Assembly (NCBI RefSeq): GCF_963921235.1 | Contig: NC_086108.1 | Span: 65,226,001-65,290,000 of the forward strand | Source: Mobula hypostoma | Taxonomy: Eukaryota | Direction of reading: 5' to 3' | Length of the DNA stretch: 64,000 nucleotides | In this document: piece after piece, positions 13,637-51,195 of the stretch | How positions within the stretch are numbered: position 1 is the stretch's first letter | How the letters are laid out: every line of letters starts with the position of its first letter | Translations under genes and position numbers: made by a program | The notes under the pieces: generated by a model | The model's database searches: none | Seen by the model: the letters and a program-made list of their open reading frames with translations, nothing else | Told to the model about the DNA's origin: nothing

Positions 13637-15369
13637 CAAACAACAGGAATTCTGCAGATGCTGGAAATTCAAGCAACACACATCAAAGTTGCTGGTGAAC
13701 GCAGCAGGCCAAGCAGCATCTGTAGGAAGAGGTGCAGTCGACGTTTCAGGCCGAAACCCTTCGTCAGGACTAACTGAAGGAAGAGTGAGTAAGGGATTTG
13801 AAAGTTGGAGGGGGAGGGGGAGATCCAAAATGATAGGAGAAGACAGGAGGGCGAGGGATAGAGCCAAGAGCTGGACAGGTGATAGGCAAAAGGGGATACG
13901 AGAGGATCATGGGACAGGAGGTCCGGGAAGAAAGACAGTGGGGGGGGACCAGAGGATGGGCAAGAGGTATATTCAGAGGGACAGAGGGAGAAAAAGGAGA
14001 GTGAGAGAAAGAATGTGTGCATAAAAATAAGTAACAGATGGGGTACGAGGGGGAGGTGGGGCCTTAGCGGAAGTTAGAGAAGTCGATGTTCATGCCATCA
14101 GGTTGGAGGCTACCCAGACGGAATATAAGGTGTTGTTCCTCCAACCTGAGTGTGGCTTCATCTTTACAGTAGAGGAGGCCGTGGATAGACATGTCAGAAT
14201 GGGAATGAGATGTGGAATTAAAATGTGTGGCCACTGGGAGATCCTGCTTTCTCTGGCGGACAGAGCGTAGATGTTCAGCAAAGCGGTCTCCCAGTCTGCG
14301 TCGGGTCTCACCAATATATAAAAGGCCACATCGGGAGCACCGGACGCAGTATATCACCCCAGTTGACTCACAGGTGAAGTGTTGCCTCACCTGGAAGGAC
14401 TGTTTGGGGCCCTGAATGGTGGTAAGGGAGGAAGTGTAAGGGCATGTATAGCACTTGTTCCGCTTACATGGATAAGTGCCAGGAGGGAGATCAGTGGGGA
14501 GGGATGGGGGGGACGAATGGACAAGGGAGTTGTGTAGGGAGCGATCCCTGCGGAATGCAGGGGGGGGGGAGGGAAAGATGTGCTTGGTGGTGGGATCCCG
14601 TTGGAGGTGGCGGAAGTTACGGAGAATAATATGTTGGACCCGGAGGCTGGTGGGGTGGTAGGTGAGGACCAGGGGAACCCTATTCCTAGTGGGGTGGCGG
14701 GAGGATGGAGTGAGAGCAGATGTACGTGAAATGGGGGAGATGCGTTTAAGAGCAGAGTTGATAGTGGAGGAAGGGAAGCCCCTTTCTTTAAAAAAGGAAG
14801 ACATCTCCCTCGTCCTAGAATGAAAAGCCTCATCCTGAGAGCAGATGCGGCGGAGACAGAGGAATTGTGAGAAGGGGATGGCGTTTTTGCAAGAGACAGG
14901 GTGAGAAGGGGAATAGTCCAGATAGCTGTGAGAGTCAGTAGGCTTATAGTAGACATCAGTGGATAAGCTGTCTCCAGAGACAGAGACAGAAAGATCTAGA
15001 AAGGGGAGGGAGGTGTCGGAAATGGACCAGGTAAACTTGAGGGCAGGGTATATTGGCGAGACCCGACGCAGACTGAGAGACCGCTTTGCTGAACATCTAC
15101 GCTCTGTCCGCCAGAGAAAGCAGGATCTCCCAGTGGCCACACATTTTAATTCCACATCCCATTCCTATTCTGACATGTCTATCCACGGCCTCCTCTACTG
15201 TAAAGATGAAGCCACACTCAGGTTGGAGGAACAACACCTTATATTCCGTCTGGGTAGCCTCCAACCTGATGGCATGAACATTGACTTCTCTAACTTCCGC
15301 TAAGGCCCCACCTCCCCCTCGTACCCCATCTGTTACTCATTTTTATGCACACATTCTTTTCTCTCACTC
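13637..15369 (-). mobile_element. Penelope-like element, 5'-truncated minus copy (13637-15046) with inverted plus arm (15047-15369)
   Basis: RT C-terminus (LPFLDL, YYKPTD) and GIY-YIG (GVIYCVRC..LYIGET). Near-identical to 47350-48763. Confidence 0.92.
13736..13771 (-). ncRNA. Minimal type I hammerhead ribozyme of the Penelope-like element
   Basis: AGTC-CTGACGA-AGGGTTTCGGCCT-GAAAC-GTC-GACT: stem I, intact catalytic core, stem II and a minimal stem III with GUC site. Confidence 0.85.
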
Positions 15370-19964: not shown

Positions 19965-22800
19965 TTAACAAGTATAAGAAATAAAGTAGATGAGCTTGAG
20001 GCACAGTTGGAAATTGGTAAGTATGATGTTGTGGGAATAACAGAGACATGGCTTCAAGTGGACAGGGCCTGGGAAATGAATATTCAAGGTATACGTCCTA
20101 TTGAAAGGACAGACTGATGGGCAGAGGGGGTGGGGTGGCTCTGTTGGTGAGGAATGATATTCAGTCCCTTGCGAGGGGGGACATAGAATCAGGAGACGTA
20201 GAGTCAGTATGGATAGAACTGAGAAATTCTAAGGGTAGAAAGACCCTAATGGGAGTTATCTACAGGCCCCCAAACAGTAGTCTGGATGTAGGGTGTAAGT
20301 TGAATAAAGAGTTAAAACTGGCATGTCGCAAAGGTAATGCTACAGTTGTTATGGGGGATTTCAACATGCAGGTAGACTGGAGGAATCAGCTTGGTACTGG
20401 ACCCCAAGAAAGGGAGTTTGTGGAGTCCCTCCGAGATGGATTCTTAGAACAGCTTGTACTGGAGCCTACCAGAGAGAACGCAATTCTAGATTTAGTGTTA
20501 TGCAATGAACCGGATTTGATCAGGGACCTTGAGGTAAAGGAGCCATTAGAAGGTAGTGACCATAAGTTGGAGAAGGGAAACTCGTAAGTGTCAGTATTAC
20601 AGTTGAACAAAGGGAACGGTGGTGCTATGAGGGAGGAGCTGGCCAAAGTTCAATGGAACAATACCCTAGCAGGGATGACAGTGGAACAGCAATGGCAAGT
20701 GTTTCTGGGAATAATGCGGAAGGTGCAGGATCAGTTCGTTCCAAAGAGGAAGAAAGATCCTAAGGGGAGTAGGGGGAGGCTGTGGCTGACAAGGGAAGTA
20801 ATTGACAGTATAAAAATAAAAGAGAAGTATAGCATAGCAAAGACGAGTGGGAAGCCGGAGGACTGGAAAATGTTTAAAGAGCAACAGAAGGTAACTAAGA
20901 AGGCAATATGTGGAGAAAAAATGAGGTATGAAGGTAAACTAGCCAAGAATATAAAGGAGGATAGTAAAAGCTTCTTTAGGTATGTGAAAAGGAAAAAAAT
21001 AATTAAGATCAAAACTGGGCCCTTGAAGACAGAAATGGGTGAATTTATTATGGGGAACAAGGAAATGGCAGACAAGTTGAACAGGTACTTTGGATCTGTC
21101 TTCACTAGGGAAGACACAAACAATCTCCCAGATATAATAGTGGCCAAAGGACCTAGGGTAATGAATGAACTGAAGGAAATTTATATTAGGCAGGAAATGG
21201 TGTTGGATAGACTGTTGGGTCTGAAGGCTGACAAGTCCCCGGGACCTGATGGTCTACATCCCAGGGTACTTAAGGAGGTGGCTTTAGAAATCGTGGATGC
21301 ATTGGTAATCATTTTCCAATGTTCTATAGATTCAGGATCAGTTCCTGTGGATTGGAGGGTGGCTAATGTTGTCCCAATCTTCAAGAAGGGAGGAAGAGAG
21401 AAAACAGGGAATTATAGACCGGTTAGCCTGACGTCGGTGGTGGGAAAGATGCTGGAGTCAATTACAAAAGATGAAATTACGACACATCTGGATAGCAGTA
21501 ACAGGATCGGTCCGAGTCAGCATGGATTTACGAAGGGGAAATCGTGCTTGACTAATCTTCTGGAATTTTTTGAGGATGTAACTATGAAAATGGACAAGGG
21601 AGTGTACCTGGACTTTCAGAAAGCCTTTGATAAAGTTCCACATAGGAGATTAGTGGGCAAAATTAGGGCACATGGTATTGGGGGCAGAGTTCTGACATGG
21701 ATTGAAAATTGGCTGGCTGACAGAAAAACAAAAAGTAGCGATTAATGGGTCCCTTTCGGAATGGCAGGCGGTGACCAGTGGGGTACCACAGGGTTCAGTG
21801 CTGGGACAGCAGCTGTTTACAATATATATTAATGATTTAGATGAGGGAATTAAAAGTAACATTAGCAAATTTGCCAATGACACAAAGCTGGGTGGTGGTG
21901 TGAAATGTGAGGAAGATGTTATGAGAATGCAGGGTGACTTGGACAGGCTGGGTGAGTGGGCAGATGCATGGCAGATGCAGTTTAATGTGGATAAATGTGA
22001 GGTTATCCACTTTGGAGGTAAGAACAGGAAGGCAGATTATTATCTAAAAATGGAGTCAAGTTAGGAAAAGGGGAAGTACAACGAGATCTAGGTGTTCTTG
22101 TACATCAGTCACTGAAAGCAAGCATGCAAGTACAGAATGCTGTGAAGAAAGCTAATGGCATGCTGGCCTTCATAACAAGGGGAATTGAGTATAAGAGCAA
22201 AGAGGTCCTTCTGCAGCTGTACAGGGCCCTGGTGAGACCACACCTGGAGTACTGTGTGCAGTTTTGGTCTCCAAATTTGAGGAAGGACATTCTTGCTATT
22301 GAGGGAGTGCAGCGTAGGTTCACAAGGTTAATTCCCGGGATGGCAGGACTGTCATATGTGGAAAGATTGGAGTGACTGGGCTTGTACACTCTGGAATTTA
22401 GAAGGCTGGGAGGGGATCTTATTGAAACATATAAGATTATTAAGGGATTGGACAAGCTGGAGGTAGGAAGCATGTTCCCGCTGATGGGTGAGTCCAGAAC
22501 CAGAGGCCACTGTTTAAGAATAAGGGGGAGGCCATTTAGAATGGAGTTGAGGAAAAACTTTTTCACCCAGAGAGTAGCGGATATATGGAATGCTCTGCCC
22601 CAGAAGGCTGTGGAGGCCAAGTCTCTGGATGCTTTCAAGAAAGAGATGGATAGAGCTCTTAAAGATAGCGGAATCAAAGGTTATGGGGAAAAGGCAGGAA
22701 CTGGATACTGATTGTGGATGATCAGCAATGATCACAGTGAATGGCGGTGCTGGCTCGAAGGGCCGAATGGCCTACTCCTGCACCTATTGTCTATTGTTTG
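19965..22800 (+). mobile_element. CR1 LINE, near-complete ORF2 (APE endonuclease and RT), disrupted
   Basis: [40 protein letters not shown] and a CTATTGT repeat tail. Confidence 0.95.
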
Positions 22801-30370: not shown

Positions 30371-32419
30371 ACAGTCTCTTACTATGAGATTACTAATTAA
30401 CTCAATCTCATTACAAAAACTAAAGCAAATTTGAGATATAAGATCATACAATGGTACAGCACATAAGCCTAATGGCCTGCATTCTTGATGCTGGCTATTG
30501 TGCTCCCTAGATTAGTTCCATTTACCTGCATTTTGTCTTTGGCCTCTTTGCCACTGAGTACATACACTGTATAAAAAAGTGAAAAATAAATGAATCCAAT
30601 GTAAGTTAGGGACTCCTACCAGATTAATGAAGTGGATTTTTGGAAACTTGAAAGTACTGTGAGCATGTTGATCATTCATCAAGCAATTGTTTCAAACGTA
30701 GCATATTTCTGCCAGTAATTTGTGGTACTTTTGGCTGTGGCTCAGTTGGCGGTAATTTTGCCTCTTAATCAAGGGGCTGTGGATTCATGTTCAGCTCCAG
30801 AAACATAAGAACAAAAATCTAGAATGATGCCCCAATGCATGTTTCAGGGATGCTGAAGTCAGAGGTGCTTTTTTCAGCAGCGATATTCAACAGGAGTCCT
30901 GCCTGTCAGTCAGGTTAACGTTAACAATTCGGTGACACCATTTTGAAAGAATGTAAAGAAGTTCATTCCGAGTGGCCTAACAATACAATCCTTCGATCAA
31001 AGTCATTAAGAAAACTATGTATTTGTCACCAAATGCATCGAGGATGTTGTCCCCCAGAAATCGGTCAGGATCTATCCAAACCAGGAACCTGGATCAACGG
31101 TTCCATGCAAACAGTACTTACCGCGCAACACAGAGCTTACATTGCCAGTAATCATCAGACACTCAAGAAATGCAGCCATGATCTGCGCAGAGTCATCAAG
31201 GCAGTGAAACGACAATACAGGGACAAGTTCCAGACACAACTCTCCAACAACACACACAGCTTATGGCAAGGTCTGCACACCATCGCAGGCTTCAAAGCTA
31301 AACACAGTGGTGTTGCCAACATCGCTGCCTCTCTCCCAGATGAACAAAATCTTTTTTACGCTCAGTTTGATGTCGCCAACACTGAGCCGCGAGGAGAGCC
31401 ACCAAAGCAACTGCTCTTTAGCCATCTCTGAGGCTGAAGTACGCAGGTGTTTCCAACGAGTGGACAGCCACAAGGCCGTGGGACCGGACAGCGTCCCGGG
31501 GCAGGTACTCAGGATGTGCATGGCACAACTAGCAGGTGTGTTAACAGACATTTTTAATCTCTCCATCTCCCAGTACAGAGTGCCCTCTTGCTTCAAAACA
31601 TCCACCATTGTCCCTGTACCTAAAAAGACCAAGGTAACATGTCTGAATGACTGGTGTCCTGTCACACCCACCTCAATAATAAACAAATGCTTTGAGTGGC
31701 TGGTCAAGGACTACATCTGCAGCATACTACCACCCACACTGGACCCTCTACAATTCGCCTACTGGCACAACCGATCAACAGATGATGCAATATCTATCGC
31801 TCTACACACCGCCCTTACACATCTGGAGAAGAAGGGTGTTTATGTGAGAATAATGTTCTTGGACAACAGTTCAGCATTCAACACCATAATTCCCTCCAGA
31901 TTCGACAAGAGGCTCAGAGACCTCGGCCTTCATCCTCCTTGTGCAGCTGGATCTTGGACTTCCTGTCAGATCACCAGCAGGTGGTATGAGTGGGCTCCCT
32001 CGACTCTACCCCTCTGACCCGCAACACAGGTGCCCTGCAGGGCTGTGTTCTAAGCCCCATCCTTTACTCTCTGTATACCCATGACTGTGTTGCCACCCAC
32101 AGCTCCAAACTGCTAATTAAATTTGCTGATAACACTACATTGATTGGCCTAACCTCAATAATAACGAGGCAGCCTCCAGAGAAAAAGTCATCACCCTAAC
32201 ACAGTAGTGTCAAGAAAACAACCTCTCCCTCAATGTCACAAAAACAAAGGAGCTGGTTGTGGACTACAGGAGGAATGGAGACAGGTTAACCACTATTGAC
32301 ATCAATAGACTGGGTTGAGAGGGTAAACAGCTTTAAGTTCCTCGGCATACACATTACCGAGTATCTCATGTGGTCTATAGGTTCGTCCATCGTCATTGAT
32401 GAAGACCTCGACACCATTA

Positions 32420-32563
32420 GTACTTTTTACGAGGTCGAGTTGCTAGCTCGACACTCAACCCAGCATGTATGGAAAGCGTGTCCACGAGTGGCTGGACTAG
32501 ATTTGAACTCAGGAACCTTCGCTCCCGCAGTCCGACGCTGATGTCACTGCGCCACCAGCCAGC
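32420..32563 (-). mobile_element. Short tRNA-derived SINE
   Basis: A box TGGCGCAGTG, B box GAGTTCAAATC and a short A-rich tail. Confidence 0.7.
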
Positions 32564-32887
32564 TTGATGGTGTCAAGACTAGCGCTTGATTTGGATTTAA
32601 GTGAGGGAGAGTTGCGCAGCATCAGCCTCACTCTCTCTTCCCAATTCCCATCTGGATCCAGTGGCAAGACAGAGTCGAGACGACTGGAGATGGGACTAGG
32701 CGCAGTGGATAACCAGGACGTCTTCTGTGTCTTGTCCTGCTCTACACATTCCACGACGCTTGCAGAGACCGCCTTCATGATTGTTGGACCTTCCATTGGT
32801 CTCGTCCGCTCAATCCACCGGAGTCTGCCTTTACATGCTGGGATAGACAACTCCCTAGCTCACCAAGGGTTTGAGACCCATCGGCTA

Positions 32888-33080
32888 CCCTCACCTGGTT
32901 TAGTCGGCTTGTCGAAGCCGTTGCCCGGGGTGTGGCCGCTGTCGCATGCAAACAGCAACGGGGAGTCACAGGTGAGAGCTGAGTTCCAGGTGGGACCAAA
33001 GGTGGACTAACTGCCCTGAAAAGGATGCGACATGTTCCCCCACCAGAGGTGCTACCCCTCCCTGACGCCCCATACACCCC
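32888..33080 (-). ncRNA. HDV-like self-cleaving ribozyme at the 5' end of the RTE element
   Basis: P1 GGGGTGT/ACACCCC, P2 CTCTCACCTG/CAGGTGAGGG, P3 GAC/GCC, L3 starting TCC. GG-GCAA junction, P4 CGGCTT/AAGCCG, J4/2 ACTAA with candidate catalytic C at 32903. Confidence 0.75.
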
Positions 33081-34129
33081 GGCTGTACATACTGGCTGTG
33101 TGGTGAAAAAAGCACAACAGCGCCTCTTTCACCTCATATGGTTGAAGAAGTTTGGTATGGACCCCAAGATCCTAAGAACTTTTTACAGGGGCACAATTGA
33201 GAGCATCCTGACTGGCTGCATCACTGCCTGGTATGGGAAATGGTACCGTAGCATAAAAGCCAGGACCAACAAGATCCGGGACAGCTTCTTCCACCAGGCC
33301 ATCAGACTGATTAGTTCACAGTGATACAGTTGTATTTCTATGTTATATTGACTATCCTGTTGTATGTACTATTTATTATAAATTACTATAAATTGCACAT
33401 TGCACATTTAGATGGAGATGTAATGTAAAGATTTTTACTCCTCATGTATGTGAAGGATATAAGTAATAAAGGCAATTCAATGCAAATTACTGTCTTTGGG
33501 AGTTTGCTGTGTGGAAACTGACTGTCATAGTTCTGCATTTAAGTTATTACATTGATTAGTAATATTTTAGCTGCAATCCCCCTGTGATGTCCCAGGGGTT
33601 TGAAGTGCACTAAACAAATGCAAACTTGGATCCATTAGTTTTTCCCAGCGAGTTTCTGCAAAGAACCATCATGTCACAAATGCCTGCATTTGGAGGAGAG
33701 GCTAAATGAATACATAAGGTAAACTGACAATATCAACATAGTAAGTTTGTGCTTCTGCTGGCATGCCCTTTAAAATTTGAAAATATTCTTCTGAGTTGGA
33801 ATTTATATTTCAAAATTATTCAAGGATTACTTCAAGAAGGTATTGGTTGTTATTTTGAACCTACATCTGAGGAAAATGTGTAAAAAGTCTTAGAGGTACT
33901 GCCCCAAAATTGAAGTCCCTTTGTTTTACTCTCATTCCACCGGTGTTTGTTTCTCACTTGTTTATGTCTCTGACTGCTAGTTTTTAATGTGATTATTCTG
34001 CAACCTATCACAAAATTGACTCTGTTCTCTCCACTCCCTTCTATTCTGAAACATAAAATACACTTGTTTCTCAATTTCCTGGTTCAAATGAATGATCCTT
34101 GGCTGTAAACACCAACTCTGTTTCCCTCG

Positions 34130-35744: not shown

Positions 35745-36385
35745 AAGTAACACACACAGAAAACAGCAAGTCAGGCAGCATCAATGGAAAAGAGTAAACA
35801 GTCCATGTTTCGGACTGAGACCCTTCTTCAGGACTGAGAAGGAAGGGGGAAGATTCCAGAATGAAAAGGAGGCAGGGCGGGGGAAGAGACAAGCCAGAGG
35901 TTGATAGGTGAAAACAACTGGGTGGGAAAGGCCAAGGGCTGGAGAAGAAAGAATCTAATAAGAGAGGAGAGTGGACAATAGGAGAAAGGAACCCAGGAAT
36001 TTGTTCACCCAAGGAGAAATCGATATTCATGCCATCAGGCCGGAGGGTACCCTGATGGAATATAAGGTGTTGCTCCTCCACCCTGAGGGTGACTTCACCC
36101 TGGCAGAAAAGACGGTCATAGATCAACATGTCGAAATGGGAATGGGAATGGGAAGGAGAATTAAAATATTTGGCCACTGGGAAGTCCCGCTTGTGGTGGA
36201 TGATGTGGAAGTGGTTCCCCAATTTACGACGGGTCTCACTAAAGTGAAAAGGGCCACATCGGGAGCACCGCACACAGTAGACGATCCCAGCAGATTCACA
36301 GGAGAAGTGTTGCCTCACCTGGAAGTTCTGTTTCGGGTCCTGAATGGAGGTGACGGAGGAAGTGAATGGGCAGATGTAGCACTTA
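35745..36385 (-). mobile_element. Older Penelope-like 3' fragment with decayed hammerhead (35800-35835)
   Basis: GIVYCVRCSRC..ETRRKL, LRVEEQHLIF and CTGAAGAAGGG..GAAAC. Confidence 0.8.
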
Positions 36386-38850
36386 ATATTACGATAGTCA
36401 TGGGGGATTTTAACATGCAGGTTGATTGGGAAAATCAGGTTGGTAATGGATCGCAAGAGAGTGAGTTTGTTGAATGCCTAGAAGGTGGCTTTATAGAGCA
36501 GTTTGTCATTGGGCCTCCTAGGGGATCAGCTATACTGGATTGGGTGTTATGTAATGAATTAGAGGTCATTAGGGAGCTTAAGGTAAAAGAACCCTTAGGA
36601 ATCAGTGATCACAATATGATTGAATTCAACTGGAAATTTGATAGGGAAAAAGTAAAGTCTGACGTAACTGTAATTCAGTGGAGTAAGAGAAATTACATTG
36701 GTATGAGAGAGGAGTTGGTTAGAGTAATTTGGATGGAGCTGCTGGCAGGGATGTCAGCAGAGCAGCAATGGTGTGTGTTTCTGGAAAAAATGAGGAAAGT
36801 GCAGGACATGTATATTTCAAAAGTGACAAAATACTCAAATGGCAAAGTAGTACAACCATGCTGACAAGAGAAGTCAAAGCTAATGTATAAAACAAAAGAG
36901 AGGGCATACAACAAAGCAAAAATTGGGAAGTTTTTAAAAACCTACAGAAAACAACTAAAAGAACCATTAGAAGGGAAAAGGTGAAATATGAAAGTAAGCT
37001 AGCAAATAATATCAAAGTGGATAGTAAAAGCTTTTTTCAAGTATGTAAAAAAAGAGAAATGAGAGTGGATATAAGACCGCTAGAAAATGAGGCAGGAGAA
37101 ATAATAATGGGGGACAAGGAGATGACAGATAAACTAAATAAATATTTTGCAACAGTCTTCATTGTGGAAGACACTAGCAGTGTGCCAGAAGTTGTATGTG
37201 TGTGAAGGAAAAGAAGCGGGTGCAAGGGGGAAGGTGCCAAAAAGCTGAAAGACCTAAAAGTATCTAAGTCACCTGGACCAGATGGACTGCACCCCAGGGT
37301 TCTGAAAGAAGTTGTGTTAGAGATTGTGGCGGGAATAGAAATGATCTTTCAAAAATCATTGGACTCTGGCATGGTGCCAGAGGACGGGAAAATTGCAAAT
37401 GTCACTCCACTCTTTAAGAAAGAAGGAAGGCAGCAAAAAGAAAATTATAGACCAGTTAGCCCGACGTCCGTGGTTGGGAAGATGTTAGAGTCAGTTGTTA
37501 AGGGCGCGGTGATGTAGTACTTGGTGATACAGGGCTAGAGAGAACAAAGTCAACATGGTTTCCTTAAGGGAAAATCCTGCCTGGTGAACCTGCTGGAATT
37601 CTTTGAAGAGATTACACATAGGATCGATAAAGGGGATGCAGCGTATGTTGTATACTTGGACTTTCAGAAGGTTTTTGACAAGGTACCACACATGAGGCTG
37701 CTTACCAAGTTAAGAGCCTGTGGTATTACAGGAAAGTTACTAACATGGTTAGAGCATTGACTGATTGGAAGAAGGCAGTGAGTGGGAATAAAAGGATCCT
37801 TTTCTGGTTGGCTGCCAGTGACTAGTGGTGTTCCGCAGGGGTCAGTGCTGGGACCACTTCTTTTTATGCCGTATATAAATGATTTAGATGATGAAATAGA
37901 TGGCTTTTTTGCCAAGTGTGTAGATGATACGAAGCTTGGTGAAGGGGCAGGTAACTTTAAGGAAAGCGGTAGGATGAAGAAGGATTTAGACAGATTAGGA
38001 GAATGGGCAAGAAAGTAGCAAATGAAATATAATAATGGAATATGCATTGTCATGCACTTTGGAAGTAGAAATTAATGTGCAGACTATTTTCTAAATGGGG
38101 AGAAAATCCAAACATCTGAGATGCAGAGGGACTTGGGAGTTGTTGTGTGGAAAACCCTAAAGATTAACTTGCAGGTTGAGTAAGTGGTGAGGACGGCAAA
38201 TGCAATGTTAGCATTCATTTCAAGAGGTCTAGAATACAAGAGCACGGATGTAATGCTAAGGCTTTTTCAGGCACTGGTGAGGCCTCACCTTAAGTATTGT
38301 GTATAGTTTTGGTCTCCTCATCTTAGAAGAGATGTGCTGGCATTGGAGAGGGTCCAGAGGAGGTTCACAAGGATGATTCCAGGAATGAAAGCGTTATCAT
38401 ACAAGGAATGTTTGATGACTCTAGGTCTGTCTCACTGGAACTTAGAAGAATGGGGGGGGGGGGGGAATCTTATTGAAACCTTTCGAATGTTGAAAGGAAT
38501 AGTCAAAGTGGGAGATGGAAAGGATGTTTCCCATGGTGAGAGAGTGTAGGACAAGAGGGCGCAGTCACAGGATAGAGGGGCATCCATTCAAAACAGAGAT
38601 GCAGGGACATTTCTTTAGCCAGAGGGTGGTGAATTTGTGGAATTTGAAGCAGCTGTGGAGACCAGATCGTTGGGTGTATTTAAGGCAGAGACTGATAGAT
38701 TCTTGATTGGACATGGCACCAGAGGTTACAGGGAGAAGGCCGGGAACTGGGGTTGAGGAGGAGGGAAAAAAGGATCTGCCATGATTGAATGACGGAGCAG
38801 ACTCGATGGGCCAAATGGCCTAATTCTGCTCCTATATTTTATGGTCTTAT
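36386..38850 (+). mobile_element. CR1 LINE ORF2, disrupted
   Basis: [32 protein letters not shown] and a 3' tail. Confidence 0.92.
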
Positions 38851-40282: not shown

Positions 40283-41995
40283 GAAAATGAAGAGCAAGAG
40301 GATAAGACGTGAAAGAATAGGAGCTATCAAGTGCGACAGTGGGGAAGTGTGTATAGAACCGGAGGAAATAGCAGAGGTACTTAATGAATACTTTACTTCA
40401 GTATTCACTATGGAAAAGGATCTTGGTGATTGTAGTGATGATTCGCAGCAGACTGAAAAGCTTGAGCATGTAGATATTAAGAAAGAGGATGTGCTGGAGG
40501 TTTTGGAAAGCATCGAGTTGAATAAGTCACCAGGATCAGATGAGATGTATCCCAGGCTACTGTGGGAGGCGAGGGAGGATTGCTGAGCCTCTGGTGATGA
40601 TCTTTGCATCATCAATGGGGACGTGGGAGGTTCCGGAAGATTGGAGGGTTGCGGATGTTGTTCCTTTATTCAAGAAAGGGAGTAGAGGTAGCCCAGGAAA
40701 TTATAGACCAGTGAGTCTTACCTCAGTGGTTGGTAAGTTGATGGAGAAGATCCTGAGAGGCAGGATTTATGGACATTTGGAGAGGTATAATGTGATTAGG
40801 AATAGTCAGCATGGCTTTGTCAAGGGCAGGTCATGCCTTACGAGCCTGATTGAATTTTTTGAGGATGTGACTAAACACATTGATGAAGGAAGAGCAGTAG
40901 ATGTAGTGTATATGGATTTCAGCAAGGGATTTGACAAGGTACCCCATGCAAGGCTTATTGAGAAAGTAAGGAGGCATGGAATCCAAGGTGACATTGCTTT
41001 ATGGATCCAGAATTGGCTTGCCCACAGAAGGCAAAGAGTGGTTGTAGACGGGTCATTTTCTGTATGGAGATTGGTGACCAGTGGTGTGCCTCAGGGATCT
41101 GTTCTGGGACCCCTACTCTTCGTGATTTTTATAAATGACCTGGATGAGGAAGTGGAGGGATGGGTTAGTAAGTTTGCTGATGACACAAAGGTTGGAGGTG
41201 TTGTGGATAGTGTGGAGGGCTGTCAGAGGTTACAGCAGGACATCGATAGGATGCAAAACTGGGCTGAGAAGTGGCAGATGGAGTTCAACCCATCTAAGTG
41301 TGAAGTGGTTCATTTTGGTAGGTCAAATACAATGGCAGAATATAGTATTAATGGTAAGACTCTTGGCAGTGTGGAGGATCAGAGGGACCTTGGGGTCTGA
41401 GTCCACAGGACGCTCAAAGCAGCTGCGCAGATTGACACTGTGGTTAAGAAGGCATACGGTGTATTGGCCTTCATCAATCATGAAACTGAGTTTAGGAACC
41501 ACTACAGGAAGGGTGTGGAAGCCATAGAAAGGGTGCAGAGGAGATTTACAAGGATGTTGCCTGGATTCGGGAGCATGCCTTATGAAAACAGGTTGAGTGA
41601 GCTCAGCCTTTTCTCCTTGGAGCGACGGAGGATGAGAGGTGACCTGATAGAGGTGTGTAAGATGATGAGAGGCATTGATCATGTGGATAGCCAGAGGCTT
41701 TTTCCCAGGGCTGAAATGGTTGCCACAGGAGGACACAGGTTGAAGGAGCTGGGGAGTAGGTACAGAGGAGATGTCAGTTTTTTACTCAGGGAGTGGTGAG
41801 TGTGTGGAATGGGCTGCCGGCAATGTTGATGGAGGCAGATATGATAGGGTATTTTAAGAGACTTTTGGATAGGTACATGGAGAAAGATAGAGAACTATGG
41901 GTAAGTCTAGTAATTTCTAAGGTAGGGACATGTTCGGCACAACTTTGCGGGATGAAGGGCCTGTATTATGCTGTAGGTTTTCTATGTTCTATGTT
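40283..41995 (+). mobile_element. CR1 LINE RT and 3' end, small internal deletion at ~41497
   Basis: 286-aa RT ORF with [19 protein letters not shown] and KFADD. Confidence 0.95.
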
Positions 41996-46717: not shown

Positions 46718-47171
46718 AACTGAAGGAAGAGTGAGTAAGGGATTTGAAAGCTGGAGGGGGAGGGGGAGATGCAAAATGATAGGAGAAGACAGGAGGGGGA
46801 GGGATAGAGCCGAGAGCTGGACAGGTGATAGGCAAAAGGGGATACGAGAGGATCATGGGACAAGAGGTCCGGGAAGAAAGACGGGGGGGGGGTGACCCAG
46901 AGGATGGGCAAGAGGTATATTCAGAGGGACAGAGGGAGAAAAAGGAGAGTGAGAAAAAGAATGTGTGCATAAAAATGAGTAACAGATGGGGTACGAGGGG
47001 GAGGTGGGGCCTAGCGGAAGTTAGAGAAGTCAATGTTCATGCCATCAGGTTGGAGGCTACCCAGATGGAATATAAGGTGTTGTTCCTCCAACCTGAGTGT
47101 GGCTTCGTCTTTACAGTAGAGGAGGCCGTGGATAGACATGTCAGAATGGGAATGGGATGTGGAATTAAAAT

Positions 47172-48341
47172 GTGGGCACCCGTATGGGTCCTAGCTATGC
47201 CTGCCTTTTTGTTGGGTTTGTGGAACAATCTATGTTCCGTGCCTATTCTGGTATCTGTCCCCCACTTTTCCTTCGCTACATCGACGACTGCATTGGCGCT
47301 GCTTCCTGCACGCATGCAGAACTCGTTGACTTTATTAACTTTGCCTCCAACTTTCACCCTGCCCTCAAGTTTACCTGGTCCATTTCCGACACCTCCCTCC
47401 CCTTTCTAGATCTTTCTGTCTCTGTCTCTGGAGACAGCTTATCCACTGATGTCTACTATAAGCCTACTGACTCTCACAGCTATCTGGACTATTCCTCTTC
47501 TCACCCTGTCTCTTGCAAAAACGCCATCCCCTTCTCGCAATTCCTCCGTCTCCGCCGCATCTGCTCTCAGGATGAGGCTTTTCATTCTAGGACGAGGGAG
47601 ATGTCTTCATTTTTTAAAGAAAGGGGCTTCCCTTCCTCCACTATCAACTCTGCTCTTAAACGCATCTCCCCCATTTCACGTACATCTGCTCTCACTCCAT
47701 CCTCCCACCACCCCACTAGGAATAGGGTTCCCCTGGTCCTCACCTACCACCCCACCAGCCTCCGGGTCCAACATATTATTCTCCGTAACTTCCGCCACCT
47801 CCAACGGGATCCCACCACTAAGCCCATCTTTCCCGCCCCCCTCTCTGCATTCCGCAGGGATCGCTCCCTACACAACTCCCTTGTCCATTCATCCCCCCCA
47901 TCCCTCCCCACTGATCTCCCTCCTGGCACTTATCCGTGTAAGCGGAACAAGTGCTACACCTGCCCTTACACTTCCTCCCTTACCACCATTCAGGGCCCCA
48001 AACAGTCCTTCCAGGTGAGGCATCACTTCACCTGTGAGTCGACTGGGGTGATATACTGCGTCCGGTGCTCCCGATGTGGCCTTTTATATATTGGTGAGAC
48101 CCGACGCAGACTGGGAGACCGCTTTGCTGAACATCTACACTCTGTCCGCCAGAGAAAGCAGGATCTCCCAGTGGCCACACATTTTAATTCCACATCCCAT
48201 TCCCATTCTGACATGTCTATCCACGGCCTCCTCTACTGTAAAGATGAAGCCACACTCAGGTTGGAGGAACAACACCTTATATTCCGTCTGGGTAGCCTCC
48301 AACCTGATGGCATGAACATTGACTTCTCTAACTTCCGCTAG
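47172..48341 (+). CDS. Penelope RT C-terminal half plus GIY-YIG endonuclease (uninterrupted but 5'-truncated)
   Basis: MGTRMGPSYA, RYIDD, LPFLDL, YYKPTD, CKRNKCYTC and GVIY..YIGET in a 389-aa open frame. Confidence 0.85.
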   Translation: MGTRMGPSYACLFVGFVEQSMFRAYSGICPPLFLRYIDDCIGAASCTHAELVDFINFASNFHPALKFTWSISDTSLPFLDLSVSVSGDSLSTDVYYKPTDSHSYLDYSSSHPVSCKNAIPFSQFLRLRRICSQDEAFHSRTREMSSFFKERGFPSSTINSALKRISPISRTSALTPSSHHPTRNRVPLVLTYHPTSLRVQHIILRNFRHLQRDPTTKPIFPAPLSAFRRDRSLHNSLVHSSPPSLPTDLPPGTYPCKRNKCYTCPYTSSLTTIQGPKQSFQVRHHFTCESTGVIYCVRCSRCGLLYIGETRRRLGDRFAEHLHSVRQRKQDLPVATHFNSTSHSHSDMSIHGLLYCKDEATLRLEEQHLIFRLGSLQPDGMNIDFSNFR

Positions 48342-48671: not shown

Positions 48672-49669
48672 GCGCCTCTTCCTATAGATGCTGCTTGGCC
48701 TGCTGCGTTCACCAGCAACTTTGATGTGTGTTGCTTGAATTTCCAGCATCTGCAGAATTCCTGTTAGTTTTGTCATCCAAATCACTGACATATAACATGA
48801 AAAATGCAGTCCCAAATGACCCCTGCAGAATATTACTAGTCACCAGCAGCCAACCAGAAAAGGCATCCTTTTGTCACCTCACTCTTTGGTCTTGCCAGTA
48901 AGCAAATCTTCTACTCTTCCACTTCAAGGACTGATGCAAGACTAAAAATAATGACAGATTTTCCAAGCACAAAACATGGCTTACTTGCTCCAATAATACA
49001 CACAAAATACTTTTAAATAGTATCTCAGTTAAATTATATCACATATCAGCAAGTGGCTTTAATCATTTGCATTTCTTTGTCAGAATATCATATGGAATAT
49101 CAATGATGCTCCACAGGTGTAAATTCAGATTGAATTTAAAAAGTACAACAAAGTTTGGGAGTGTTGATCAAAAGATCGGAGAAAATGTGTGTGTGCATGT
49201 ATGTGTGAGAAAATGGATGGGCAATGTTAGTGGGATGGATATACTGTAGCTGGTTTCAGATGTGTACAGTATATGGGGTTGGAATCTTGGATATGTGTTA
49301 CAAACAACACTCATCTTCCAAATTCTGGTTCAGTCTGAAGCTGACACAAATGGAGAAATTGAATGTATGACTGGGGATAACTTTGAATTGGACTGGATTG
49401 GATCCCAATTTCAACTGGAGGTTTCGAATTCATGGAAGCTAGCTGTATGTTTTTCTAGTTAATGGACAGCGCTCAAAAATGAGAGTTTGGACAAATGAAG
49501 GACTATGGAATTTCAATGCTTGTTTTAAAGACTGAAGCTTGAATGAAAGTACAGCCCATGTCCTCCAGTCGATCTTAATGCCATTTTATACAAAATGCCC
49601 TCCTGTCCATATCCCTCCATTCCCTTCATATCTATGCAGCTATTTAAAAGCCACTTAAACTCGGTCAAC

Positions 49670-51195
49670 AACATGTCCACAAGCCTGACTGTCCCAGTAG
49701 ACCCATAGTTTCTGCCTGCTCCTGCCCCACCAAACTTGTATCTGCCTACTTGGACTCCATTTTGTCACCCATAGTTCAGTCCCTCCCCACCTACATCCGG
49801 GATACACCCCATGCCCTCCACCTCTTCAATAACTTCCAGTTCCCCGGTCCCAACCGCTTCATTTTCACTATGGATATCCAACCCTTATACACTTCCATTC
49901 CCCATCAAGAAGGCCTCAAAGCCCTCTGCTACTTTCTGGACAATAAACCTCACCAGTTCCCCACCACCACCACACTCCCCCAGTTGGCGGAACTGGTACT
50001 CACATTTAATAAATTCTCTTTTGGCTCTTTCCACTTTCTTCAGACCAAGGGTGTAGCTATAGGCACTCGCATGGGCCCCAGCTATATCTGTCTCTTGTTT
50101 GGTTATGTGGAACAATCTATGCTCCAAACCTATACTGGTACTGCTCCCCAACTTTTCCTTTGCTACATTGACGACTACATTGGTGCTGCTTCCTGCACCC
50201 ATGCTGAGCTCGTCAATTACATCGACTTTACTTCTAACTTCCACCAGGCCCTCAATTTCACTTGGTCAATCTCGGACACTTCTCTCCCCTTTGTCGATCT
50301 CTCGGTCTCCATCTCTGGAGACAGACTGTCCACTGACATCTTTTATAAGCCCACTGACTCTCATAACTACCTCGACTATACCTCTTCCCACCCTGCCACA
50401 TGCAAAAATGCTATTCCCTATTCCCAGTTCCTCCGTCTCCACCACATCTCCCCCAGGATGAGGCTTTCCATTCCAGGACATCTCAGATGTCCTCTTTCCT
50501 TAAGGATCGTGGTTTCCCTTCTGCCATCATCAGTGATGCCCTCACCCGCATCTCCTCCATTTCCCGCACTTCAGCCCTCACCCCATCCTCCCGTCACAAC
50601 AACAGGGACAGAGTTCCCCTTGTCCTCACCTACCACCCCACCAGCCTCCGGATCCAGCACATTATCTTCCGCAACTTCCGTCACCTTCAACAGGACCCCA
50701 CCACTAAGCACATCTTTCCCTCTCTACCCCTCTCCGCTTTCCACAGGGATCGTTCCCTCCGTGACTCCCTGGTCCACATGTCCCTCCCCACAGATCTCCC
50801 ACCCGGCACTTATCCCTGCAAGCGTAAGTGCTACACCTGTCCCTACACCTCCTCTCTCACCACTATTTAGGGCCCCAAACAGTCCTTCCAGGTAAGGCAA
50901 CACTTCACTTGTGAGTCTGTTGGGGTCATCTATTGCATCCGGTGCTCCCATGCGGCCTCCTCTACATCGGTGAAACCCAACGCAGATTGGGGGACTGCTT
51001 CACTGAGCACCTCCGCTCCATCCGCCACAACAGACAGGATCTCCCGGTTGCCACCCACTTCAACTCTGCTTCACATTCCCATTCGGATATGTTCATACAT
51101 GGCCTCCTCTACTGCAATGATGAGGCCAAACTCAGGTTGGAGGAGCAACACCTCATATACTGTTCTGGGTAGTCTCCAGTCCCTGGGCATGAACA
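49670..51195 (+). mobile_element. Older Penelope-like element (different subfamily) within a CR1 remnant (49540-49665, 51196-51550, minus)
   Basis: FTMDIQPLYTSIP, KGVAIGTRMGP, YIDD and LYIGET, with frameshifts. Confidence 0.88.

Follow-up and report, generated by a model that had tools for sequence, protein, structure and literature searches.

Within the 64,000-nt stretch of DNA analysed here, which we call the window, the minus strand carries what we read as a damaged copy of an HDV-like ribozyme fold found at the 5' end of a family of short retroposons derived from RTE elements and of its full-length relatives. We propose, with a probability of about three in four, that intact family members self-cleave 5' of G1, freeing the element from read-through transcripts, and that an extra hairpin projects from the flexible 3' end of loop L3 and leaves the active site unchanged. 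Judged from sequence, intact members are probably active. According to this proposal, a transcript reading into the element would fold the HDV core, and C32903, serving as the catalytic C75, would cleave 5' of G1. Since L3 opens with 7 canonical nt, U20-G25 and P1.1 would form as in HDV, and a P1.2 domain with 3- and 2-nt linkers, together with an 11-bp P2, would accelerate cleavage in the manner of drz-Agam-2-1. Recognition of the shared tail by an RTE protein would lead to copying of the freed RNA, so that new copies would start at G1. Accessible text on the antigenomic ribozyme describes the nucleotide on the 3' side of the conserved G in L3 as flexible, bulged and poorly conserved (PMC3386971), and since the insert follows this position it probably points away from the core.

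The fold in the window and the element it heads

Read on the minus strand from 33080, the parts of the fold follow one another as P1, J1/2, P2, P3, L3, P3', P1', GG, GCAA, P4, J4/2 and P2' (Table 1), and the family shows the nested double-pseudoknot order of P1, P2, P3, P1.1 and P4 with P3' contiguous to P1'. The first-pass annotation had proposed a perfect 7-bp P1, which we recovered with all seven pairs (33080-33074 with 32933-32927), and the P1.1 GG followed by GCAA, the 6-bp P4, the J4/2 with C at 32903 and the 28-nt L3 with its own 5-bp hairpin all lie where it had placed them. Its 10-bp P2 (32978-32969 with 32897-32888) also stands, with an extra pair that it had missed, U32968-A32899 next to P3, followed by the bulged C32898; likewise its length of 95 nt for J1/2 is right, and the P1.2 structure inside J1/2 had escaped it. 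Two features that it had counted as part of the structural variant are present in this copy but do not belong to the family: where the window has a central A-C mismatch in P3, 29 of 29 other copies have GGC/GCC, and where its J4/2 reads ACTAA, with a private first A, 29 of 29 read GCTAA.

Table 1. Positions of the fold, its parts, the element and the interrupted host LINE in the window.
Feature	Position	Strand	Remarks
HDV-like ribozyme fold	32888..33080	minus	G1 = 33080; from parse, copy starts, descriptor and pairing changes
P1, 5' strand	33074..33080	minus	predicted cleavage 5' of 33080
J1/2, P1.2 domain in family	32979..33073	minus	basal arms 33070-33061 and 32990-32981; weakened in window copy
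P2, 5' strand	32968..32978	minus	10 bp plus U32968
P3, 5' strand	32965..32967	minus	G>A at 32966 private to window copy
L3, canonical 8-nt part	32957..32964	minus	U20, C21, C22, G25 (32959); A>T at 32957 private
L3 insert, 20 nt	32937..32956	minus	5-bp hairpin (32956-32938), 9-nt loop, then one G
P3, 3' strand directly into P1, 3' strand	32927..32936	minus	fold parse
P1.1 GG and J1.1/4	32921..32926	minus	GG kept in 7/7 representatives
P4, 6 bp with tetraloop	32905..32920	minus	2 double-sided pairs
J4/2, CNRA motif	32900..32904	minus	predicted catalytic C at 32903; G>A at 32904 private
P2, 3' strand	32888..32899	minus	bulged C32898
Whole non-autonomous element, composite subfamily, about 700 bp	32378..33080	minus	RTE 5' UTR, presumed tRNA-like SINE, RTE 3' tail
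Rest of RTE-derived 5' UTR	32565..32887	minus	78% to L111 (nt 3-505), 75% to L214 (nt 232-505)
Presumed tRNA-like SINE, embedded once at junction of halves	32420..32564	minus	amplified with element
RTE-type 3' tail	32378..32419	minus	82% over 28 nt to L214, L216 and L217 tails (E 0.11)
Host LINE flank beyond G1	33081..33245	plus	element antisense to host
Host LINE, other flank	31208..32377	plus	RT frame 31208-32017, RVT_1 E 3.9e-6, under curated cut-off

The copy in the window is likely inactive or nearly so, its P3 being broken by the private G>A and its fold predicted to be diverted by the private A>T. The changes at 32966 (in P3), 32957 and 32904 and the deletion at 32994 were each absent from 17 subfamily copies (0/17), the P3 change at 32966 was also absent from 29 other loci (0/29), and a change at 32985 was found in two of the 17. 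In the isolated P3-L3 segment, folded with energies that ignore pseudoknots, the P3 pairs have a probability of 0.00 in the window copy versus 0.82-0.84 in a family copy and are lost because the hairpin extends into the P3' strand; the model favours an insert hairpin that the A>T at 32957 lengthens to 9 bp, capturing the 3' strand of P3. The J1/2 of a near-majority family copy folds as a long P1.2 at -48 kcal/mol (z -4.44, none of 200 shuffles as good), joined by 3- and 2-nt linkers, and that of the window copy is no stabler than its shuffles (z -0.28), P1.2 being lost. Taken together, these predictions argue against the view that this copy is itself a working ribozyme. It may nevertheless not be fully dead, because the jewel-wasp R2 ribozyme still cleaved despite a P3 mismatch, as the available passages report (PMC3774820).

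A search of the 3.48-Gb genome with the first 221 nt returned 2,382 candidates; scoring covered 40 of them, and 30 loci were fetched. All 29 other loci align from G1 or from at most 3 nt away, and 28 of them continue for about 516 nt, most stopping about 45 nt later in an AAC-type tail, which gives a main family of about 560 bp; it is without an ORF. Consisting of a 5' UTR and a 3' tail only, lacking an ORF and flanked by target-site duplications, the element has the makeup of a bipartite non-autonomous RTE; the exact parent was not found, the best relative being L111 at 78%. The 560-bp family has a 12-bp hairpin in which the last bases of the 5' half pair with the first bases of the tail (32576-32565 and 32419-32406 in the window, minus strand), and the SINE of the window's subfamily is embedded in the loop of this hairpin. 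We take this SINE (32564-32420) to be tRNA-like; ARAGORN found no tRNA within it. A private insertion of the SINE in the window copy was ruled out: of 26 loci picked with a query spanning both SINE junctions, 17 give a nearly full-length alignment and 13 have G1 as their first base, whereas no locus begins at the head of the SINE. In sequencing runs of eight coded organisms the family reaches a share of 0.42 or more (query L012:1501-2060), so the element family is common to related species. Some copies (L086, L190/L220) have an inverted 5' part, as expected from twin priming.

The two host LINE flanks are joined directly in eight of nine uninterrupted host copies, and the target-site duplication at the window copy measures 5-7 bp with two differences, so that the two bases just ahead of G1 may come from the host or have been added without a template. 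The claim that the host LINE resumes immediately beyond G1 therefore holds to within 0-2 nt and not to the exact base. Elsewhere in the window, long frames with weak GIY-YIG matches (14064-15164, minus; 47169-48341, plus) possibly belong to Penelope-like elements, and further RT or endonuclease frames lie at 20588-21745, 35962-36864, 40522-41400 and 49648-50895.

Element 5' ends and autonomous relatives

Forty copies were picked on an internal L3 motif to avoid selection at the 5' end, a design that excludes copies truncated beyond the motif. Of these, 26 start at nt 1, 31 at nt 1-4 and two at nt 9-10, the others being scattered; a duplication is detectable in 14 of the 26 copies that start at nt 1, and nine of these duplications directly abut G1. 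The fold had been said to mark the exact 5' end of the element, and these starts agree, as do the unrelated upstream flanks of 30 copies and the changes in P1, P1.2 and P4 described below. Copies sharing sequence upstream of G1 would have spoken against that claim, and the comparison of the 30 upstream flanks gave no similar pair.

T stands just before G1 in 38 of 53 copies versus 34% in the flank background (p 3e-8), and is mostly the last base of the duplication. It may stem from a second-strand cleavage preference or from pairing of an untemplated A. The RTE target-site signature was rejected as its source, since that signature, in the text available to us, concerns the first base of the duplication (PMC6007223).

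RNA runs were seen as contigs only, and contigs do not show RNA ends. In one RNA-seq run from another organism (X19), a 253-nt contig spans the whole fold at a depth of 11.5, with 25 differences and three gaps, and an adapter-like 17-mer, presumably the end of an Illumina adapter, is joined directly to G1. This contig fits an RNA ending at G1 and is a hint only, as it is a single contig, maybe built from duplicates of one fragment, in which cleavage and initiation look alike. Contigs of runs X15, X16 and X18 cross G1 into varied flanks, with no end pile-up listed, and run X20 covers an inner part only.

A second copy of the P1 heptamer opens J1/2 (33071-33065 in the window). In family B both 9-nt repeats are alike, and starts judged by eye fall at the second repeat in seven of 16 copies and at the first in five, with four unclear; subfamily descent could be an alternative source of this pattern.

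Elements with their own coding capacity also begin with the fold. Matches to a pattern built to leave out the main family numbered 282, and four of the 30 fetched (L103-L106) have the fold followed by an endonuclease frame; L103-L105 extend as endonuclease-RT elements of about 4 kb, the fourth relative being more broken. In a metagenome pattern scan, two of 34 loci were homologous, contigs L111 and L124, with the same order of fold and then endonuclease-RT, the other loci being without similarity; L111 is 78% identical to the element over nt 3-505. The relatives have the architecture of the RTE clade, namely a single ORF with AP endonuclease and RT, a length of about 4 kb, a short 3' UTR and a microsatellite tail. 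The endonuclease-RT protein is 60% identical to P0090, named Craniofacial development protein 2, a name that we take to mark the BovB/RTE endonuclease, and a comparison of proteins alone found homologues in amphioxus, slug, frogs, tapeworms, mantis shrimp and Komodo dragon. The RTE derivation put forward by the first-pass annotation is upheld by these single-ORF endonuclease-RT elements of about 4 kb that start with the fold and by the shared 3' tail; RTE seems the natural clade label, judged from architecture and a single named homologue rather than from a tree.

Four further relatives (L214-L217) are young, with long open frames of up to 1,129 aa, and L214 carries the Pfam domains Exo_endo_phos and RVT_1. 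Their identity to the element is about 75% over nt 232-505, and three of them also have its tail (82% over 28 nt, E 0.11), but their 5' ends are different and show no similarity to the ribozyme part; sharing the UTR body and tail and not the ribozyme, they indicate that the lineage can move without it. Upstream of their ORF, GC-rich sequence stands in the ribozyme's place (for example G000:C50:39668900-39674400), and in L214 part of this stretch reads like what we take to be methylmalonyl-CoA epimerase coding sequence; a captured host promoter may have replaced the ribozyme. Another related copy (L204, about 660-760 in element orientation) opens, by eye, with a long hairpin, not an HDV fold.

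Viral contigs gave no match by pattern or by protein, and the 28 pattern matches from a scan of prokaryote genomes were not used as evidence. A DUF6451 search did not lead to the parent: the RTE-like family that it yielded is another one, and 20 stretches of it showed no DNA similarity. A second RTE-like family (L053, L326-L341) has a 1,018-aa frame with DUF6451 and a GAA tail. Its 5' end is conserved and sharply defined, and carries a structured motif with CUAA as its last bases, for which we found no clean HDV-like parse and no Rfam match.

Pairing changes, the L3 insert and competing readings

Seven real copies from six lineages were aligned and a 65-pair structure was counted, in which 95% of the cells pair. 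Double-sided changes occur in 14 of the 65 pairs (one in P1, 11 in P1.2 and two in P4), a number reached by none of 500 shuffles, with slid controls giving 3-6; the count comes from few, related sequences, with the J1/2 structure taken from one aligned row and several changes from L124 alone. The change in P1, from G2-C to U-A, is found in L111 alone. P2, P3 and P1.1 are uninformative because they are practically invariant. None of the five pairs of the L3 hairpin changed on both sides among the seven representatives, in which one-sided G-U substitutions alone were seen; its fifth pair is hidden by gaps in four rows and reads U-G in nine of 12 C/E copies. Covariation, which had been proposed as a check for P1 to P4 and the L3 hairpin, thus appears in P1 and P4 (and in P1.2), fails to appear in the hairpin and has no room in the invariant P2 and P3.

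The core is conserved beyond its helices: U20, C21, C22, G25 and C75 are kept in six of six lineages, J4/2 reads CUAA or CCAA in all six, and the purine at position 1 is G1 in the copies. This conservation bears on an unlikely alternative, in which the fold is a relic or is mostly held off by the insert. The 5' end would then be set by a transcription start at G1 or by a reverse transcriptase that stops at a stable structure, and the fold would act in RNA stability, in translation or in the binding of a protein. Young intact RTEs without the ribozyme part, the read-through contigs in three runs and the A at position 24 in two lineages, where the published motif has C, would all suit such a relic. 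So would a rival fold seen when the P3-L3 segment of a family copy is folded alone: under the same pseudoknot-free energies, the hairpin has a probability of 0.42, and in the rival fold C24-A27 pair with its loop; because of this fold an attenuating role of the insert is conceivable. A relic would hardly be expected, however, to keep C75, U20, G25 and both P1.1 pairs in all lineages where J1/2 is only 65% identical, or to have its 5' end at the first P1 pair in every lineage with an intact end, and the seven of 16 family B copies that start (by eye) at the second repeat do so at one that is P1-competent. We therefore retain the reading of a fold that is probably active in intact members.

In the window copy and the family alike, L3 consists of the usual 8 nt, a 19-nt hairpin and a G, and its first 7 nt match the published TYYHCGY motif in the window's family. 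A pattern scan of the genome with fixed flanks found an L3 of 25-29 nt at 2,815 places, of 6-25 nt at 54 and a longer one at 11, with no matches for reversed-pattern controls; a short-L3 sister family was rejected, the 54 short matches being heterogeneous, with scattered deletions, and seemingly unrelated. Mean identity is 0.92 for the outer four pairs of the hairpin, 0.99-1.00 for P2 and P3, 0.74 for P4 and 0.65 for J1/2, and the loop ranges from 9 to 7 nt among lineages. The hairpin stem is conserved, its pairing unproven by covariation. A role of the loop as a palindrome or inner tetraloop suits three loop types and not the C/E lineage, and is unsupported. The segment could also be read in another register, with P3 formed by GGC and the GCU right after the 8-nt loop, L3 canonical and the extra 20 nt between P3 and P1. 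GGC and GCU do pair there, with one G-U (two in L124), and the loop would be exactly HDV-sized, but in the HDV descriptors examined P3' continues into P1' with no gap, the bases next to P1' are always GCC, and the hairpin arms are complementary in six of six lineages, which together make this register improbable.

We re-coded a published RNAMot descriptor and ran it on 30 copies. It matched none, nor did versions allowing the longer J1/2 alone or the hairpin alone, and allowing both matched 24; 22 of the 30 copies match this hairpin and long-J1/2 descriptor strictly with P1 at G1, and tolerating one P3 mismatch adds the window copy. Rfam reported no ribozyme family in the window stretch (E up to 10) or at six other loci (E up to 1). 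The claim that standard descriptors would miss this variant is therefore borne out for one published descriptor (0/30) and for Rfam, with the addition that the long J1/2 by itself also defeats the descriptor. The relaxed descriptor (hairpin allowed, J1/2 up to 150 nt, one P3 mismatch) matches exactly once in the window, with P1 at 33080 and C at 32903, a match by construction because the descriptor was written after the motif had been seen, and has no match in 12 dinucleotide shuffles of the window on both strands. A purely accidental array of helices in the GC-rich end of a repeat is very improbable and already largely refuted: the GC-rich 5' end, the lack of an Rfam ribozyme match and the after-the-fact descriptor would allow it, and the 12 empty shuffled windows, the compensatory changes in three helices and the exact coincidence with the 5' end go against it.

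Comparison with known systems

HDV-like ribozymes have an L3 of 7 or 8 nt in the passages available to us (bioRxiv 10.1101/2022.09.22.508989; PMC1874588), and the family exceeds this with 26-28 nt; a length of 7-8 nt is a limit of the descriptors, not a catalytic determinant. In the accessible part of the RNArobo/RNAMot descriptors (PMC4870747), the TYYHCGY start of L3, the RN after P1' and the CNRA in J4/2 all agree with the window's family, and L3 is set at 7-8 nt and J1/2 at no more than 51 nt, versus 28 and 95 here. Because the patterns checked fix L3 at 7-8 nt, a search with them misses thousands of copies in one genome and may also overlook relatives elsewhere. The natural 20-nt L3 insert is, as a variant of the HDV-like fold, apparently new, in so far as the running text of the literature covered gave no report of a hairpin in L3. 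If the fold is active, the insert marks a new core-adjacent site for engineering or regulating HDV-type ribozymes, and the family offers an easy way to probe why two-ended parasites arise so often from RTE elements. A bolder suggestion, which we hold only tentatively and think rather doubtful, would make the L3 hairpin a functional fifth domain and the mark of an HDV-like subclass, so far unrecognised, at the 5' end of an RTE lineage widespread in animals. Its stem, almost as conserved in sequence as the core, would lie at the active site and either tune cleavage or dock onto P1.2 or the RTE protein, and the duplicated P1 would give the element a choice of two 5' ends.

Freeing the 5' end of a retroposon is an already known ribozyme role. 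HDV-like ribozymes head RTE, R2, R4, Ingi/L1Tc and LOA/baggins elements in the sources as available (PMC6765202, PMC5786205, PMC3774820), and like them the present fold has its cleavage site predicted at the first base and a long variable J1/2. It also has in common with them the L3 G and the J4/2 C, and the duplicated P1, as modelled for R2; the two start registers of family B agree with the two-P1 model for R2 (PMC3774820). R2 ribozymes use about 15 nt for P1.1, P3 and L3 together, and the accessible text describes no L3 hairpin in them (PMC3774820). The nearest structural parallel that we compared is drz-Agam-2-1, a mosquito HDV-like ribozyme with a P1.2 domain, which is accelerated by a structured J1/2 and an extended P2 (PMC4908430, available passages). 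Both have a nested double pseudoknot and a structured J1/2 on short linkers, and the extended P2 measures 12 bp in drz-Agam-2-1 and 11 bp with one bulge in the window's element; drz-Agam-2-1 has measured activity and, in those passages, no L3 insert is named, whereas the element here has the 20-nt L3 insert and an activity that is predicted only (PMC4908430).

Ribozyme-headed RTEs and bipartite RTE parasites are both already known (PMC6765202, PMC5786205). Like the bipartite non-autonomous RTE elements Bov-A, RTESINE, WALLSI3 and MAR4, as the accessible text describes them (PMC5786205), the window's element joins a 5' UTR to a 3' tail, lacks an ORF, keeps the 5' end of its parent and ends in a microsatellite. 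Unlike these elements (PMC5786205), the window's subfamily carries its tRNA-like SINE between the two halves and not in front, so that the ribozyme stays 5'-terminal.
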